This document shows, piece after piece, positions 37,597 to 62,879 of a stretch of DNA of 64,000 nt. The stretch lies in IMG/VR virus record IMGVR_UViG_3300021399_000115, positions 1 through 64,000 of that record; one strand, given 5' to 3'. Position 1 is the stretch's first letter. Each line of letters begins with the position of its first letter. The notes beneath the pieces are model-generated. The model saw only the letters and a program-made list of their open reading frames with translations, did not search any database and was not told where the DNA came from. Made by a program: the position numbers and the translations under genes. Source of the DNA: a virus (Duplodnaviria; Caudoviricetes).

Positions 37597-37648
37597 TTTA
37601 ATAATTAATTGATTATCTATACATTACCACACATTTAATAATTAATCA
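37597..37648 (-). promoter_or_regulatory. Putative promoter overlapped by two AATTAATTATTAAA boxes
   Basis: TTGATT, 17 bp, TG-extended TAATGT; boxes at 37597 and 37634. Confidence 0.55.
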
Positions 37649-39465
37649 AGCACTTATTTCTTGATAATGTAACATTTTTTCAATCTGGTCGTCACTCATA
37701 TCATTCCACTTGCGGATGCCGGCGATATCAAGCTGCGAGAAAATGCCCATGAGAACCGATCTGACAATGCCGTTGCCGGCCTCCTTAAAGAGCTGGCTGT
37801 TCGAATTCGTTGTTTCTGCTCTATTAAAATACTCATCATTTGGACCGGCTATATCCATTAAACGCCAACATTCTTTTGGCGTGAGTTTTCGAATTCGATA
37901 TCTATACTTAGTTTCTTCCATAATATCAATCAATCCCTTCCTTCGTTATTACTATATATCTCAAACACCCAATTATCCTTAGCTACCGAAGTTATTGTAT
38001 GGGCGAGTTCATCCTCAGCAAGTTCCAGACGTTGCACGAGAATACCGCCACCAGTCTTGGATCGATCATTTGGATTATTCGGGTTACGTCCTCTCGACGC
38101 GCATATTATTTGTTTGATTAGTTTCATAATTTATCTCTTTAATAATTACTATCGGTTCACGGTTACCACCGCCGGCAGTGTTAATCGCAGGACATAATCC
38201 GCGATGGGAATATACATTGCCGGCATATGATCCACCGGTGAAACCGTATATATTACCTAATCTGATTAGTTCTTTCATTGTTCTCATGTCCTACCACTAT
38301 CATCGGCTGAGTATTACCGCCCGAGTTCGCCTTGATTGCCGGACACAGCCCTTGTACTCCAAACACTGCGCCGGCATAGGCGTCTTTATGACCGTAAATA
38401 TTGCCGATAAAAATACTACTCGTTAGATTGATTGTTTTCTTCAATTTCAAGTACTGCATTAGCCCAATTACTCATTCCTTTATAGTCGCGAACTAAAAGT
38501 GATGTTGCCACATCAACAAAATATATGTTGGGGTCACTTGGTTTACCCTTCGCTCGCTGAATATCTTTAATTATTATTGATGTAAATCGCTTCTTTGTCA
38601 TATTTTTTCAACATTGTATAACACCAGATCCCTCAGATCTGCGGTTACTGATTCCGCGGTCTGTCCTTGCGCTGACGCAATTTGCGATATCAAGAGTGTC
38701 TGGGTTATTAACAGATAAATCAACGGCTTCGAGAATTGTCTCCTCATCAAGTTTGCCGTCTGCAATAAGTTGCTTGATGAGAGCATCAGCTTTTTCATTG
38801 TTGATGTAGAACTTCTCATCTACAACCGGATCGAGTCGGTCTTTCATAACTTCATGGAGCGGAATCGGTCGCGGAAATTCGAAGTTGATTTCTTCTAGGC
38901 TACTAACCATAAAACAACGGTTGCGGTGCTGTGGTACTCCATACTCACTGGCTTCGAGATCTTGCCAGTAGTTGTGATAACCCTTGGATTCAAGAAACGA
39001 AATCCAGTTTTGGAAATTCTCTAAATTTTTCTTACTGTGAACCTGTGTGACATTCTCCATGATGAGTATTTGAGGAAGTTCTTCCAGTTCATTCAACAGA
39101 CGCTCAACTTCCCAAAGTAATGATGATCTAGTTCCGCTATCCTTATCCATTCCGGCTTGCTTACCGGCAACTGAAAGGTCATGCTATTGGCAGGGAAAAC
39201 TATAAGTCATAATATAAGTATACTTATCAGTATCCCTGATCCCTAAATCATCACCTCCAATCTCTTTAATATCCATTGTTTCGAAGTTAGTACCGTGAAT
39301 TGCGTTATAGCTTTTAACCGGGAATTTATCGAATTCTACTAAACGATAATGCTCGAATACGTCATCCGGATTAAGACCATTTGCAATAGCCAAATCCCTC
39401 AAACCTATCGACTGGCAGCCAATACCGCCAAATAGCTCAATCAATCTAATTTTATTAGTTATCAT
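37646..39465 (-). CDS. C5-cytosine DNA methyltransferase locus split into several ORFs
   Basis: 39184-39465 has motif I (ELFGGIG) and IV (FPCQ); 38608-39183 has DLSVAG, ENV and QHRNRCF; four TRD-like mini ORFs at 37930-38601; 37646-37933 has motifs IX/X (RKLTPKECWRLM, EAGNGIV). Confidence 0.85.
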
Positions 39466-39728
39466 ATTACTCCTTTAATAATTAATCGGTTTGTTATTGT
39501 TACTTTTATCACCAAAGTGATATCGATTTAAGAAATCCACATACGACAAACCGGACATATCCACATCTGTCCGGAAGCCGCAGCTACATTTAAAAATCCT
39601 TTTAGGTACTTGACCGTGTGCATATGTACTGCACAGGATCATTGCTCTTCCACAGATAGGACATGTCCGATAATTCATAATGTCTCCTTCCTTCTTATTT
39701 AATTATCTCAGTGATTATTACATTGAGT

Positions 39729-41285: not shown

Positions 41286-42527
41286 TTACCTTAGTTCCAC
41301 CAGATATTTAATAGTTACTTGATCCACGTTGTAAAAAACAATCTCATCGTTTCTGAGCATAGAGCCAGCATGAGCGTGGAGACAATTTGCTCCAGGACAA
41401 TCTTCTCTTAATCTTTTATAGTTATAGTTGTAATATTTACTATCAAAAGAATAAACATCGTATGGCTTACCATAATGAAAATTCATTAATGCCATAAAAG
41501 CAGATGAAGAATTCCCCCTTGCCCAGTAAGAACCGCTTAATGAAGTATATCCAAGAGATTTCCGTGCAGTTGGCGAGGCATAGATCGCATCTCCAAACAT
41601 CGAGCCTGTGTATACGGCATTAGAAGGTCTTATCATTAGTCCATTGTTAATAATTGACCACCAGTTCTCATTTCTGCTTCCATGCCAAAACAATCTAACG
41701 TCTTTAATATTTTCTTTTTCTACAAAATCATCAAATCGTTTTTGTGTAGCCAAGTTGGTTACTCTCCATGCTTGATAGAATTTATCTTTGCAATCACCCA
41801 ACATATCTTTAATGACTTCAATTTCGGTATCGTTAACGGGTTCCATCACAATACCCATGGCTTCAAGAATTGTTTTGTCATTAATCGGAGAATTTTCAAC
41901 GCTATCATCTCGAACCGTCTGCTCATCATCCAGAGCCGAGTGAGTGATTACCTGGCCTCGCATAACATCAAGCAGATCTTGCTCATCTTTAATAATACGG
42001 GCAAAATCATCGGTTGACTTAGCCAAATAATCATTAACATTACTCATCTTTCGGGGAATTGTGGTAAACAATTTCATCAATTCCTCATTAAACGGCTTAA
42101 TCGTTGTTATCGTTGTAAGGCTATCAATTATTTTCTGTGCCTCGTCAACCATCGCCTGGGTAACTTGATTTGATTCCACACGGTAATTTTGCTGGACCTT
42201 CTTTTTAGCCATACTCATTAGGCGATCAACAATCTCTGCTATGGCAGCATTTTCGATTGCTTTATACTCCGGAGTATCCGGCTTCGTGTCTACCACGGAT
42301 ATTAAATCTTCCATCAGATGTGTCTGATCTACATAACCTTTGCGGATTTTCTCATTATATTTTTTATCCCAGTCGCGCAGAGGGTAAGTCCTCGTCTGAG
42401 AACTCGCCCCTACTCTGCCGTACTGAACCGTAAAAGTTTCGCCGTCGGTATTCGCCAGCATCCGATAGTATTTATTGTTATTGTTTGACGACACCATCAC
42501 TAAATATACAGGCTTATAATCACTCAT
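41286..42527 (-). CDS. WGR-domain PARP-like ADP-ribosyltransferase
   Basis: NNNKYY..QYGRVG..KIRKGY (WGR), helical domain with IPR, catalytic WHGS, GSMFGDAIYAS and NDEIVFY (H-Y-E triad). Confidence 0.9.
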   Translation of the reverse strand: MSDYKPVYLVMVSSNNNNKYYRMLANTDGETFTVQYGRVGASSQTRTYPLRDWDKKYNEKIRKGYVDQTHLMEDLISVVDTKPDTPEYKAIENAAIAEIVDRLMSMAKKKVQQNYRVESNQVTQAMVDEAQKIIDSLTTITTIKPFNEELMKLFTTIPRKMSNVNDYLAKSTDDFARIIKDEQDLLDVMRGQVITHSALDDEQTVRDDSVENSPINDKTILEAMGIVMEPVNDTEIEVIKDMLGDCKDKFYQAWRVTNLATQKRFDDFVEKENIKDVRLFWHGSRNENWWSIINNGLMIRPSNAVYTGSMFGDAIYASPTARKSLGYTSLSGSYWARGNSSSAFMALMNFHYGKPYDVYSFDSKYYNYNYKRLREDCPGANCLHAHAGSMLRNDEIVFYNVDQVTIKYLVELR

Positions 42528-42529
42528 AA

Positions 42530-42982
42530 TTAACCCTCATATGCGGAACAAACATACCTAAATACTTCATCACCTACATACATTACAATATTGATATTAG
42601 TGTCGAAAAATATCTCATCGATTGCCTGGAGGACATCATCAACGGCAAAACCATTTTTCCCGGTACAAATTGCCGGCATGGCAACTTTTGTGATACCGTT
42701 CTTTTTACATTTTGCCTTAAACTCCTCAAGACAAGCAATAAGATTATCAAACACCGGTTTATCATAACTCATATCTTTAACAAGCAGCATATATAAATTA
42801 TCAAGTCGGGCAAGCTTACCGCCCTTAAATACTTTAATATTGGATTTACGTTTCTCAATATTAAACATCTGATCCATTACTTTATTGATACCGACGCTAC
42901 AATTAAAGTCGGCTGAAAACGCACTGACGATTGTATAACCCTGGGGTGCGAGTTTTATATCTGCATTAATAAAATTAATCAT
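42530..42982 (-). CDS. Macrodomain protein (Poa1p/TARG-like), degenerate
   Basis: SAFSADFNCSVGI, LLVK and KVAMPAICTG resemble the HCISAD..MGAGIA / AMPRIGCG pattern. Confidence 0.7.
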   Translation of the reverse strand: MINFINADIKLAPQGYTIVSAFSADFNCSVGINKVMDQMFNIEKRKSNIKVFKGGKLARLDNLYMLLVKDMSYDKPVFDNLIACLEEFKAKCKKNGITKVAMPAICTGKNGFAVDDVLQAIDEIFFDTNINIVMYVGDEVFRYVCSAYEG

Positions 42983-43540: not shown

Positions 43541-44245
43541 TTAAATGTGACAATCTACTATGGTCAATATCCAATTTGGATCTGAGCCGCTAATGAATCT
43601 ATCATCATAGTTACTAACCCAATCAATCCATGACTGGTCGGACTCATCACTCATACCGAACCATCCCATGTTGCCCGGAGCATGCCATTCACCGTCTGGG
43701 GTAACTACTGCATATGTGGAAAATGTCGCCATAAGTCTGGCATATGTTTCCGCATCCCTATAACGGCGAGTATAATACTCTTTCTTGAACCCGTTGAAAA
43801 AGGATTCCTTAGTTTCTCCAGATGTCAGCGGTGAATCGTTGACTACGACATCCCAGTATCTCAAACGATATTGGTATTCCGCTTCGTCTACATCAAGATC
43901 AAAATCTTTAATTCTGCCCTCATCGATTGGAGTTCCATTTTTATTCTTTAGCAATCCAGAATACCTTCCGCCCGGTTCCCACCAATCCCATTTGGATTTT
44001 GGATTATACATGGAAATCAAGTTGCCGTTGATATCAACTTTATAATCGTCTGCCATATACTCATAACAAGCTTCATCTGAGGCATTTTTGTCCATATAAT
44101 GTTCTCTGGCATATGCTATTGCTTCATCTCGGGTGTATTCTATATATGGTTCAACTTCGAGATTTTCATTATATGGTGCTAGTAATTCTTCTACTGATTG
44201 ATCGTCACGGTGTATAACCGCTACCGCAAAATGGCTCATAATCAT
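43541..44245 (-). CDS. Conserved phage hypothetical protein
   Basis: YNPKSKWDWW..GGRY, AVVTPDGEWH..GWFG and terminal DCHI; 234 aa. Confidence 0.6.
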   Translation of the reverse strand: MIMSHFAVAVIHRDDQSVEELLAPYNENLEVEPYIEYTRDEAIAYAREHYMDKNASDEACYEYMADDYKVDINGNLISMYNPKSKWDWWEPGGRYSGLLKNKNGTPIDEGRIKDFDLDVDEAEYQYRLRYWDVVVNDSPLTSGETKESFFNGFKKEYYTRRYRDAETYARLMATFSTYAVVTPDGEWHAPGNMGWFGMSDESDQSWIDWVSNYDDRFISGSDPNWILTIVDCHI

Positions 44246-44260
44246 ATTCTCCTTTAATAA

Positions 44261-44962
44261 TTAATCATTAGGTTCTTTAAAAAGCGGCGGTTTCTCGCCA
44301 CTAGAAATAACCTTTAAACATTCGTCAACAATGTCCTTGCAAAGTTCCGGCGGATATATAGCCTTTAGTGCCGGGTCTTTGATAGCCTGGAGACCGGTTC
44401 TGGCGCCTCGACTTGCCGGTTCATGACATGGGTCACCATTTTTGCAAGGTGGTTTTAAATGAAGGTCGATGTTGCTAAAAAAGTCTGTAGCCTTGCGGTA
44501 ACTGAAACCGTACTGGCAATATGTGGTAGTATTGATATACGGAATACACTTCATGAAATCCATCTTGCGGAGAGCGCCGACAGGATTCTCCCAAATCTGG
44601 ATTGTGGGATTAAGTTCCTTAACTAACTCTATGCAATGGATATTGAGTTCGTCCGCAAGACGGGCTTTGTCAGTCTTAGGTGCGAGATTTCCGCTGGGTT
44701 CCTTGGTTCGGTGACGACCGATTGCAGCCACGGAGTATGTGGTGCAATCAGTGCCGAGAAAAATTATATCGGGCTTGCCGAATACTTCCAGTATTTCTTC
44801 GGCAGTTATGTCCCGAATGTCCTTGTGAAGGTCACTCGGAAAACGTTCGTCATAATCAACGGTAAAGCACTGACATCCTCGTTCTCTGAATGCATTACTC
44901 ATGCACTCAAAGCCGGAGAATAGTTCCAGTACTTTAATCGGTTCTTTAAGTGGTTTGTTCAT
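44261..44962 (-). CDS. C5 DNA methyltransferase-like protein (short phage type)
   Basis: VLELFSG, TDC in place of PC, ENP, YCQYG..RKAT. Confidence 0.7.
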   Translation of the reverse strand: MNKPLKEPIKVLELFSGFECMSNAFRERGCQCFTVDYDERFPSDLHKDIRDITAEEILEVFGKPDIIFLGTDCTTYSVAAIGRHRTKEPSGNLAPKTDKARLADELNIHCIELVKELNPTIQIWENPVGALRKMDFMKCIPYINTTTYCQYGFSYRKATDFFSNIDLHLKPPCKNGDPCHEPASRGARTGLQAIKDPALKAIYPPELCKDIVDECLKVISSGEKPPLFKEPND

Positions 44963-62221: not shown

Positions 62222-62648
62222 CTAAATTTCTCAAACAAGGCCGTGTTCCACGAAATTAATTTGCGCATCGTGCGGGGTTGATTAAGCCAAAAACCCGTCT
62301 TATGGCACCTTGCTTAAGATTGCATGTGGCGAGAAAATACCCTCGCCACAAAACCTCACTTTAAGTTATTTCATTTCTGTTTCTGTTAAGTAATATTGCA
62401 ATGCTCGTCTTTCCGAGCCGTCGGGGTTTTGTAACGAAAGTTACGGGATAAAAAGCTGTTTGATCAATCACATAGTTACAAGTACGTACTTCCCAGTCTT
62501 TCCCAGGTGTCACCAGTTTTTGACAGCTATGTCCTTCGCATATTATTCTGTCACGTGCATCAGACATGTGTGGAATATGTCATTTTGCCTTTCTGCTTTC
62601 GCTTATCTTATCCACAATCAGATAAGCCGGAATCCTGGACAACCATGA

Positions 62649-62721
62649 TATCCGCAGGCCGATTCGAACAACCACTTCCCGTCGGCGGACGGGACGTACT
62701 CACCAATTATACGATACGGAT
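62649..62721 (-). tRNA. tRNA-like gene, anticodon not assignable
   Basis: ATCCGTA/TGCGGAT acceptor, D-loop AATTGGTGA, T-loop TTCGAAT; anticodon arm TCCCGTC-CGCC-GACGGGA. Confidence 0.7.
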
Positions 62722-62786
62722 AACCAATTACACATGTGCTTTCACTATTTCGGACAGCTTGTACTTCACCGACCTACTTTAGCTAG

Positions 62787-62879
62787 TGGGAACGGCAAGA
62801 TTTGAACTTGCATCTCTTTTGCGCTAAAGTGTTTTACCATAAGGATTTATTTTTTGGCACCTTATTAAACTACGTTCCC
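62787..62879 (-). tRNA. tRNA-like gene with D-loop insertion and shortened anticodon arm
   Basis: GGGAACG/CGTTCCC acceptor, GTTT/AAAC D-stem with inserted ATAAGG..CCTTAT hairpin, GCAAG-TTCAAAT-CTTGC T-arm. Confidence 0.7.

Follow-up and report, generated by a model that had tools for sequence, protein, structure and literature searches.

A phage locus for a putative split, multispecific C5 cytosine methyltransferase with target recognition modules in separate overlapping mini-genes

Introduction

Multispecific DNA methyltransferases of phages are the textbook case of one enzyme beating many restriction systems, and we know of no structural work that has settled how several target recognition domains (TRDs) share one catalytic core. 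Among the Bacillus phages SPR, phi3T, rho11s and SPbeta, these C5 cytosine methyltransferases carry their TRDs arrayed in one polypeptide, according to the accessible part of a review. Here we analyze a locus at positions 37646-39465 (minus strand) of a DNA stretch of 64,000 nucleotides, hereafter the window, from the virus record IMGVR_UViG_3300021399_000115 (Duplodnaviria; Caudoviricetes), which probably encodes a split, multispecific C5 cytosine DNA methyltransferase. Similar to the Bacillus phage enzymes, it combines one phage catalytic core with tandem TRDs between motifs VIII and IX, and its presumed role is the protection against several host restriction systems. Unlike in those enzymes, the TRDs of the window are separate, overlapping open reading frames (ORFs) of 61-68 amino acids and the core is split into an N and a C part; the two systems are likened here by layout and not by sequence kinship.

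C5 methyltransferases made of more than one chain are also known. M.AquI is a two-subunit enzyme with the remainder of the variable region and motifs IX-X on its smaller chain, as described in the available text of PMC3404938. The locus in the window likewise distributes motifs I-VIII and motifs IX-X over adjacent genes for an N and a C chain, respectively, and 17 of the 83 related loci considered below have exactly this two-piece layout. In contrast to M.AquI, it would comprise six or more chains, namely N, the four mini-proteins with one TRD each and a C chain that lacks a TRD, with the variable region cut at module borders and not through a module. The small chain of another enzyme, M.EcoHK31I, is reportedly encoded in an overlapping alternative frame. 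M.EcoHK31I consists of two polypeptides, the very small second of which is needed for activity, and differs from the window, as far as the accessible text of PMC3404938 goes, in having one small chain rather than an array, with motif IX rather than a TRD on it. Inactive fragments of M.BspRI, M.BsuRI, M.HhaI and M.SssI that are cut in the variable region complement each other with no covalent link; unlike the breaks in the window, these cuts are artificial and give two pieces, and a three-piece enzyme with a free TRD is not described in the accessible portion of the same source (PMC3404938).

By function and not by membership, the locus may further be compared with Type I HsdS, where specificity resides in a distinct protein, which can be exchanged and works with a shared catalytic subunit. 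HsdS differs from the window locus in its unrelated fold, in belonging to the N6-adenine class, in having two TRDs per protein at a set spacing and in lacking arrays of overlapping mini-genes. We found no paper on free-standing genes for C5 TRDs; supplements and most subscription papers lay outside the search, so that this is no proof of absence in print. The locus is described here as a variant of the known multispecific and split C5 methyltransferases, and we infer that its products assemble in trans.

Results

Organization of the methyltransferase locus

Under translation table 11, the locus (37646-39465) is made of seven minus-strand ORFs, designated A to G. ORF A (39184-39465, 93 amino acids) matches positions 1-72 of the PF00145 profile (E 5.2e-8) and spans motifs I-IV, including F-G-G-I-G and F-P-C-Q, which we take to be the S-adenosylmethionine-binding motif I and the catalytic Pro-Cys motif IV, respectively. 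ORF B (38608-39150, 180 amino acids) matches profile positions 85-186 (E 3.7e-23), spans motifs V-VIII, with motif VI seen as E-N-V and motif VIII as Q-x-R-x-R, and ends in a TRD module of its own, TRD1 (about 38611-38721). ORFs A, B and C occupy one frame, in which A and B are parted by a TAG (39184-39186) and B and C by a TGA (38608-38610). The TAG stands directly after Pro-Cys-Gln and, with an extra CAT codon, forms a 6-nt insert compared with intact relatives. If TAG is a sense codon, A and B form one ORF of 285 amino acids (38608-39465), the N subunit, with motifs I-VIII and TRD1 fused to its end. The TGA behind TRD1 is the natural end of this subunit, since P0002, an intact relative (283 amino acids, 87% identical) that comprises A and B without the TAG-CAT insert, stops at the same residue as ORF B. 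The TRD1 module also terminates P0017 and P0020 as well as P0002, and is internal in the single-chain relative P0060.

The rest of the locus consists of four mini-ORFs, each with one TRD module, and a terminal ORF. Mini-ORF C (38416-38601, 61 amino acids, R-D-Y-K-G type) keeps the frame of the N subunit behind the TGA. Behind it come mini-ORF D (38253-38459, 68 amino acids, G-N-I-Y-G type), the D paralogue E (38084-38287, 67 amino acids) and mini-ORF F (37930-38127, 65 amino acids, S-R-G-R-N-P type), with a step to the +1 frame at every transition from C to F. The last one, ORF G, or the C subunit (37646-37933, 95 amino acids), lies in the -1 frame relative to F and contains motifs IX-X without a TRD. 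The overlaps amount to 44 nt between C and D, 35 nt between D and E, 44 nt between E and F, and 4 nt between F and G. All ORFs named in the first-pass annotation of this DNA are present on the minus strand, including its four mini-ORFs; B and C do not overlap, and its list of TRD modules omitted the fifth TRD-like module at the end of ORF B, which is conserved in relatives.

Each of the five modules (TRD1, C, D, E and F) is homologous to in-frame modules of relatives. The core and the TRDs of the window are not contained in one polypeptide: stops or frame changes part all modules, also with TAG read as glutamine, which only joins A and B. ORF G taken alone gives a PF00145 match at profile positions 265-322 (E 7.1e-4, 19.5 bits against a cut-off of 22 bits) and is 69-86% identical to the C subunits of relatives, of which those from the loci L001, L022, L023, L071, L095 and L011 also lack a TRD. 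None of the four mini-ORFs C-F matches any Pfam family, and a sequence search of the PDB with ORF F returned no chains at E up to 10.

Conservation of the layout in related loci

To collect relatives, the protein database was searched with a read-through of A, B and C with an X at both stops. Among 8000 candidates scored, 7525 proteins were found at E <=0.001, the closest of which are short; P0002 has 283 amino acids, and many others have 244-309. P0060 (448 amino acids) carries three TRDs and motifs IX-X on one chain. The set of loci was built from 20 viral matches, the best 80 of 219 metagenome matches and the window, i.e., from 101 sources; 92 of these with motif VIII were kept and the removal of near-duplicates left 83 loci. 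Among these non-redundant loci, there are 15 single-chain, 17 two-piece and 29 multi-piece forms, and no motif IX was seen in 22, 11 of which have little downstream DNA.

Conserved segments were picked by all-against-all BLASTP of stop-to-stop segments. In this way, 137 conserved mini segments (median length 63 amino acids) were identified across 37 loci. Arrays of 8-14 modules are present in L023, L001, L010, L064, L022, L027 and L002. The C-D-E-F order recurs with identical frame steps in L023, and the relative order of modules is kept in L001, a relative of 202 kb, with one added module between a C-type module and D. Mini-ORF C is a conserved segment that 14 non-redundant loci support. Elsewhere TRDs are found in frame, for example, in the C subunit of L009 (446 amino acids) and in L043 and L050, where an E-type TRD is fused to motifs IX-X; an F-type module is in frame inside both P0060 and the L009 C subunit. 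A profile of the D and E modules detected 1558 representative clusters at E <=0.001. Among the best 150 of them, 47 have at most 90 amino acids, 32 have 91-130, 26 have 131-260 and 45 are longer; some of the short ones may be gene fragments. L001 and L023 break at the same module borders, and because the module order and frame steps recur in divergent relatives, in addition to the selection on individual frames described below, the layout is more than chance.

Several relatives have other arrangements of the same parts. L007 encodes two alternative C subunits (L007:4656-5219 and L007:5210-5596) behind a single N subunit, each C subunit with a TRD and motifs IX-X, which, judged from the sequence, is another route to two specificities for one core. 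In L006 (4699-4887) and L009 (4717-4905), the TRD1 module is out of frame within a longer N-subunit ORF, behind a repeated E-R-T-N linker. An unrelated ORF of 145 amino acids (L001:6366-6800) is located within the TRD array of L001. Finally, in P0003 (600 amino acids) and P0015 (605 amino acids), relatives of the N subunit, motif IV is interrupted directly ahead of its catalytic Cys by an intein that contains homing-endonuclease domains.

Selection on the modules

Ratios of non-synonymous to synonymous substitution rates (dN/dS) were calculated by the Nei-Gojobori method between the window and L001, using alignments chosen by protein similarity, which favours a low dN; the pairs are unambiguous at the DNA level. 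The values in the proper frames are 0.43 for D (off-frame 1.30 and 1.24), 0.13 for E (10 synonymous and 5 non-synonymous changes; off-frame 1.12 and 1.23) and 0.06 for F (17 synonymous and 5 non-synonymous changes in 59 codons), compared with 0.06 for B and 0.08 for G. In the two alternative frames, the same DNA gives dN/dS of 1.1-13.7. In more distant comparisons, dS is saturated at an amino-acid identity of 50-76%. The mini-ORFs D, E and F are therefore under purifying selection in their own frames and neutral decay is refuted. Together with the recurrence of the layout in divergent loci, this bears out the suggestion of the first-pass annotation that the locus is organised rather than decayed.

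Start signals and frame steps

At the junctions read by eye, the conserved closing strand of a module is encoded by DNA with GGAG, GAGG or AAGGAG, and it is followed by ATG, GTG or TTG in the next frame. An in-frame NTG ahead of the conserved core was found in 161 of the 200 conserved segments other than N, compared with about 115 expected from the off-frame rate of NTG. Sorted by type, such a codon precedes 14 of 14 D/E modules, 7 of 8 F modules and 22 of 24 C modules (for C, at least eight codons before the motif). The duplex energy with the anti-Shine-Dalgarno sequence averages -5.3 kcal/mol at the closest NTG, compared with -3.5 kcal/mol at other NTG codons of the arrays (n=3533) and -7.05 kcal/mol at the first ATG of ORFs of at least 200 amino acids (n=281).

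Overlapping TRD-to-TRD junctions step to the +1 frame in 63 cases and to the -1 frame in 14 (binomial p 1.4e-8). Inside the conserved cores (42347 codons), 3715 NTG occur in the +1 frame and 1110 in the +2 frame. For an NTG to arise in the +1 frame, the next codon only has to start with G, and for one in the +2 frame it has to be TGN; the staircase of frames therefore fits start codons embedded in the preceding module. Joining of the modules by frameshifting, one of the mechanisms put forward in the first-pass annotation, is disfavoured, as many junctions are in-frame stops or gaps without overlap.

Structural model of the proposed split enzyme

A three-chain fold was predicted in three runs for residues 1-245 of N, for G and for E as the partner, E being the sole mini-ORF folded. 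The scores were 0.91, 0.93 and 0.91, compared with 0.00 for all three controls; the runs share at least 66% of contacts, and the predicted local distance difference test (pLDDT) value of the partner is at least 67. In calibration, the mark for a pass was reached by 58 of 80 solved complexes and by 2 of 110 mismatched pairs. In the model, residues 25-37 of E contact residues 176-180 of N (motif VIII), and residues 44-53 of E contact residues 8-17 of G, the strand before motif IX. E is placed where the TRD of a monomeric enzyme sits. The three chains together resemble solved monomers, namely 4dkj (E 6.6e-42), M.HhaI and HaeIII, a likeness that may account for the pass. The predicted fold supports the docking of E in the split core at the level of a model. 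Of the three mechanisms proposed in the first-pass annotation (assembly in trans, frameshifting and recombination), assembly in trans is the best supported, by the start signals and by this fold.

The in-frame TAG and recoding in late genes

Gut phages that recode TAG as glutamine in late genes have been described (PMC10607447; see also 10.1101/2021.08.26.457843 and PMC9523058), and some recoded phages have no suppressor tRNA genes (PMC10607447). In the accessible text of PMC10607447 there is no mention of a methyltransferase gated by a recoded stop, and the word 'methyltransferase' occurs 0 times there. The phage of the window resembles the recoded gut phages in having in-frame TAGs in portal, terminase-like and other late genes, a likeness that bears only on the TAG after Pro-Cys-Gln.

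On the plus strand of the phage genome, TAG terminates 41 of 176 long segments, compared with 8 of 187 on the minus strand, and the plus-strand module contains many long segments of the same frame linked by TAG. Reading TAG as glutamine between 104 and 124 kb of the genome, beyond the window, an assignment assumed here by analogy with the literature only, yields plus-strand late-gene ORFs with 1-12 in-frame TAGs (including L127:4239-6329 and L127:2942-4300). One of them is the portal ORF (L127:6345-7928, 527 amino acids), whose match to phrog_2739 (residues 33-520, E 1.3e-83) runs across both of its TAGs, at residues 73 and 170. Another ORF, of 696 amino acids with 9 TAGs, shows terminase-like Walker motifs by eye; it has no Pfam match, and its only PHROG match is phrog_15503 of unknown function (E 6.6e-5, residues 49-197). 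To judge from these genes, the phage reads TAG as sense in its late genes.

With TAG read as glutamine, A and B become one ORF of 285 amino acids with two added residues in motif IV. Since TAG is sense in the late genes of this phage, the catalytic part is probably also one protein of 285 amino acids, and the split of the catalytic part after Pro-Cys-Gln, as drawn in the first-pass annotation, is probably an artefact of reading TAG as a stop. Within six codons of motif IV, a stop occurs at 0 of the 98 sites in the related loci, hence the TAG break is peculiar to the close lineage of the window. Contigs from two sequencing runs, X3 (depth 35.4 of 35.4) and X2 (4.2 of 11.7), carry two extra bases at 39183, which create on the coding strand a GTG start that overlaps the TAG, in agreement with P0010 (192 amino acids, cluster of 18). 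Among the three viral-contig loci returned for P0010, none was P0010-like with a GTG restart. A contig from run X4 (record 30, from another study) carries the TAG-CAT form of the window.

Several tRNA-like and late-gene features were seen in the same genome. The minus strand of the window has two odd tRNA-like genes, one of 76 nt (62647-62722) with a 7-bp stem and a 4-nt loop in place of the anticodon arm (ARAGORN 'tRNA-???'; Rfam tRNA 35.5 bits) and one of 93 nt (62787-62879) whose D region is enlarged by a 26-nt insert (Rfam tRNA 45.8 bits); on reading, neither of the two shows a CUA anticodon. Beyond the end of the window, with introns allowed, ARAGORN reports a tRNA-Phe(GAA) with a 314-nt anticodon-loop intron (genome 64663-65061, minus strand). 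An HNH/homing-endonuclease-like ORF of 397 amino acids (L127:10614-11807; phrog_559, E 1.8e-24) is located amid the late genes.

Variation of the array among strains

Contigs of four sequencing runs, X1 to X4, were compared with the stretch; the runs listed as containing it included none of RNA. X1, its probable source, is identical to it. Contigs of X3 and X4 skip exactly 186 nt, which corresponds to module C, and a contig of X4 has a skip of 151 nt between homologous points of D and E that leaves one hybrid module; from this skip, D and E are a 3n+1 tandem pair. The recombination considered in the first-pass annotation is seen only between strains, as the gain, loss or hybridisation of whole cassettes, and no direct or inverted repeats beyond short, chance-like ones flank the modules. 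A shufflon or invertase model was rejected on these grounds.

The locus itself (37646-39465) contains no run of five or more G or C, its only homopolymers of note being two runs of six A. Some TRD modules of relatives have G runs, namely G6, G6 and G8 in L001 (at 4947, 5102 and 7056), G7 in L023 (1071), G7 in L022 (6070), and G9 and G8 in L064 (6069 and 8572), some of which fall exactly at a frame change of a module (e.g., L001 5019-5205).

The phage and neighbouring genes

The window comes from one linear virus record, G000, which is 132,319 bases long and, by estimate, 68% complete; all long ORFs of the window are on the minus strand. This is a large gut phage, probably with a host among Clostridia. 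The top likeness of its DnaE-like ORF is to a Clostridioides phage (46% identity). By blastn no close named phage relative was found, with one weak match to Dulem virus 39 (66.5% identity, 21% of the query), and a scan of metagenome bins gave 22 loci spread over many taxa, which is uninformative on the host.

Directly upstream of the methyltransferase there is a zinc-ribbon ORF of 67 amino acids (39475-39678, minus strand), with an ORF of this kind at the same place in L001 (3748-3990). It has a weak, sub-cut-off Pfam match to the Cas12f1-like TNB domain (E 2.7e-4) and could serve as partner or regulator. Another small C5-methyltransferase-like ORF (44261-44962, minus strand, 233 amino acids; PF00145 profile positions 1-126, E 5e-6) has D-C-T-T in place of P-C-Q; an ORF of 234 amino acids without a Pfam match (43541-44245, minus strand) continues in its frame after a TAA. 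An ORF of 150 amino acids (42530-42982, minus strand) with a Macro domain (PF01661, E 5.7e-6) adjoins an ORF of 413 amino acids (41286-42527).

Discussion

On balance, we lean slightly towards the explanation that separately translated TRD subunits plug into one split core. The N subunit, probably a single protein of 285 amino acids, would carry motifs I-VIII and its own TRD, G would carry motifs IX-X, and the proteins of C, D, E and F (61-68 amino acids) would each represent one complete TRD. Each mini-ORF would start at an NTG within the coding tail of the preceding ORF, and its translation would probably be coupled to that of the latter. Docking would involve a single TRD protein at any one time, set between motif VIII of N and the pre-IX strand of G, by which the small domain of the normal enzyme would be rebuilt. 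The same core could then methylate several targets, one per module, and shield the phage DNA from several host restriction enzymes. The fullest form of this proposal is tentative, and we hold it with a little less than even confidence. It describes a Type I-like C5 methyltransferase, in which a split N+C core draws on exchangeable TRD subunits of about 60 amino acids (4 in this locus and as many as 14 in relatives), every one of them made from an overlapping mini-gene of its own, with cassettes gained, lost or hybridised singly and with the core gated to late infection by the recoded TAG of the catalytic loop.

A number of observations weigh against this proposal. In the window, the Shine-Dalgarno energies of the mini-ORFs range from weak to moderate, at -1.8 for C, -5.5 for D, -4.9 to -5.7 for E and -2.9 kcal/mol for F, those of A being -8.6, of G -8.1 (TTG) and -9.5 (ATG), and of the neighbouring genes about -12.5 kcal/mol. 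No in-frame NTG precedes the core in 39 of the 200 conserved segments; the F module of L001 has ATA/ATT at the place of the ATG in the window, and a module of L002 (5456-5647) has neither an overlap nor a start. Furthermore, the statistics of frames and starts are based on automatically chosen segments, which possibly include off-frame noise, and the pass of the three-chain fold may stem from the likeness of the chains to solved enzymes. Concerning the core, ARAGORN, run with and without introns, detected no CUA suppressor tRNA in the 68%-complete record. Without read-through of the TAG, the N subunit would end within the catalytic loop and the copy in the window would be dead; if the TAG is read as sense, TAG-CAT adds two residues within the conserved motif IV, which may harm activity.

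The weakness of the start sites would also be expected if the mini-ORFs were a reservoir of switchable cassettes, with only fused TRDs (here TRD1) active until recombination or an indel joins others in frame, and with silent modules retained since lineages use them at times. This explanation, which we regard as unlikely, agrees with the differences between strains by whole cassettes (the 186-nt skip of C in X3 and X4 and the D/E hybrid in X4), with the presence of every degree of fusion among relatives, and with modules broken at G runs in L001, L023, L022 and L064. The locus in the window, however, has neither such runs nor direct or inverted repeats around its modules, and the dN/dS of E and F is at the level of the catalytic core, which is hard to keep in silent DNA. 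Moreover, in-frame NTG are enriched and have Shine-Dalgarno energies better than background, and a +1 bias that tracks the availability of start codons is not predicted by a silent store. The regular +1 steps at overlapping ORFs, the A-rich overlaps and the single-chain and long in-frame forms among relatives could instead be accounted for by one long SPbeta-like polypeptide with many TRDs, made by a programmed +1 frameshift at each junction along with stop read-through. It is very unlikely in our view: the passage from B to C is an in-frame TGA and that from F to G a -1 step, 26 of the 103 TRD-to-TRD junctions are overlap-free (16 of them keep the frame, 4 step to +1 and 6 to -1), and the array of L001 is interrupted by the unrelated ORF. 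No common shift motif was seen at the junctions read; the conserved head of a module lies inside the overlap, and the site of the shift would therefore differ at each junction. At least four serial shifts would leave very little full-length product.

Two further explanations concern the integrity of the locus. Under table 11, the 1.8 kb of the locus contain two in-frame stops and change frame four times, and a TAG-CAT insert stands in the catalytic loop at a point where 0 of 98 relatives are broken. These signs could suggest a decaying pseudogene of a former single-chain multispecific methyltransferase, to which we give hardly any credence. Its breaks and frames are common to L001 and L023 despite a saturated or high dS; dN/dS is 0.06-0.43 in the frames of the modules and above 1 off-frame, and the signs of frame steps (63 versus 14) are not random. 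The intact P0002, too, has its normal end at the TGA that follows TRD1, and TAG is sense in the late genes of the phage. A minority possibility, improbable and yet to be taken seriously, is that the family works as proposed and the copy in the window is inactive, with the amber codon after Pro-Cys-Gln truncating the N subunit and the GTG restart lost. Relatives in X3 and X2 have a GTG that overlaps the TAG, and the next start in the window is the ATG at 39150, eleven codons on; the failure to find a suppressor tRNA fits as well, and the minus strand has only two in-frame TAGs flanked by two long segments. On the other hand, the portal and other late genes need TAG as a sense codon, the gene for a suppressor tRNA may lie outside the incomplete record, the TAG-CAT form recurs in the X4 record from a different study, and ORF B is under strong purifying selection in the comparison with L001.

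For annotation, the locus demonstrates that gene callers combined with Pfam miss all four mini-genes and split the core at a recoded TAG. If separately translated TRD subunits do plug into one split core, the TRD would be a self-sufficient docking module, and specificity could be investigated and exchanged through single small proteins, with a compact scaffold for programmable cytosine methylation as a further prospect. Uncultured gut and rumen phages could then tune their protective methylation by the gain and loss of cassettes.

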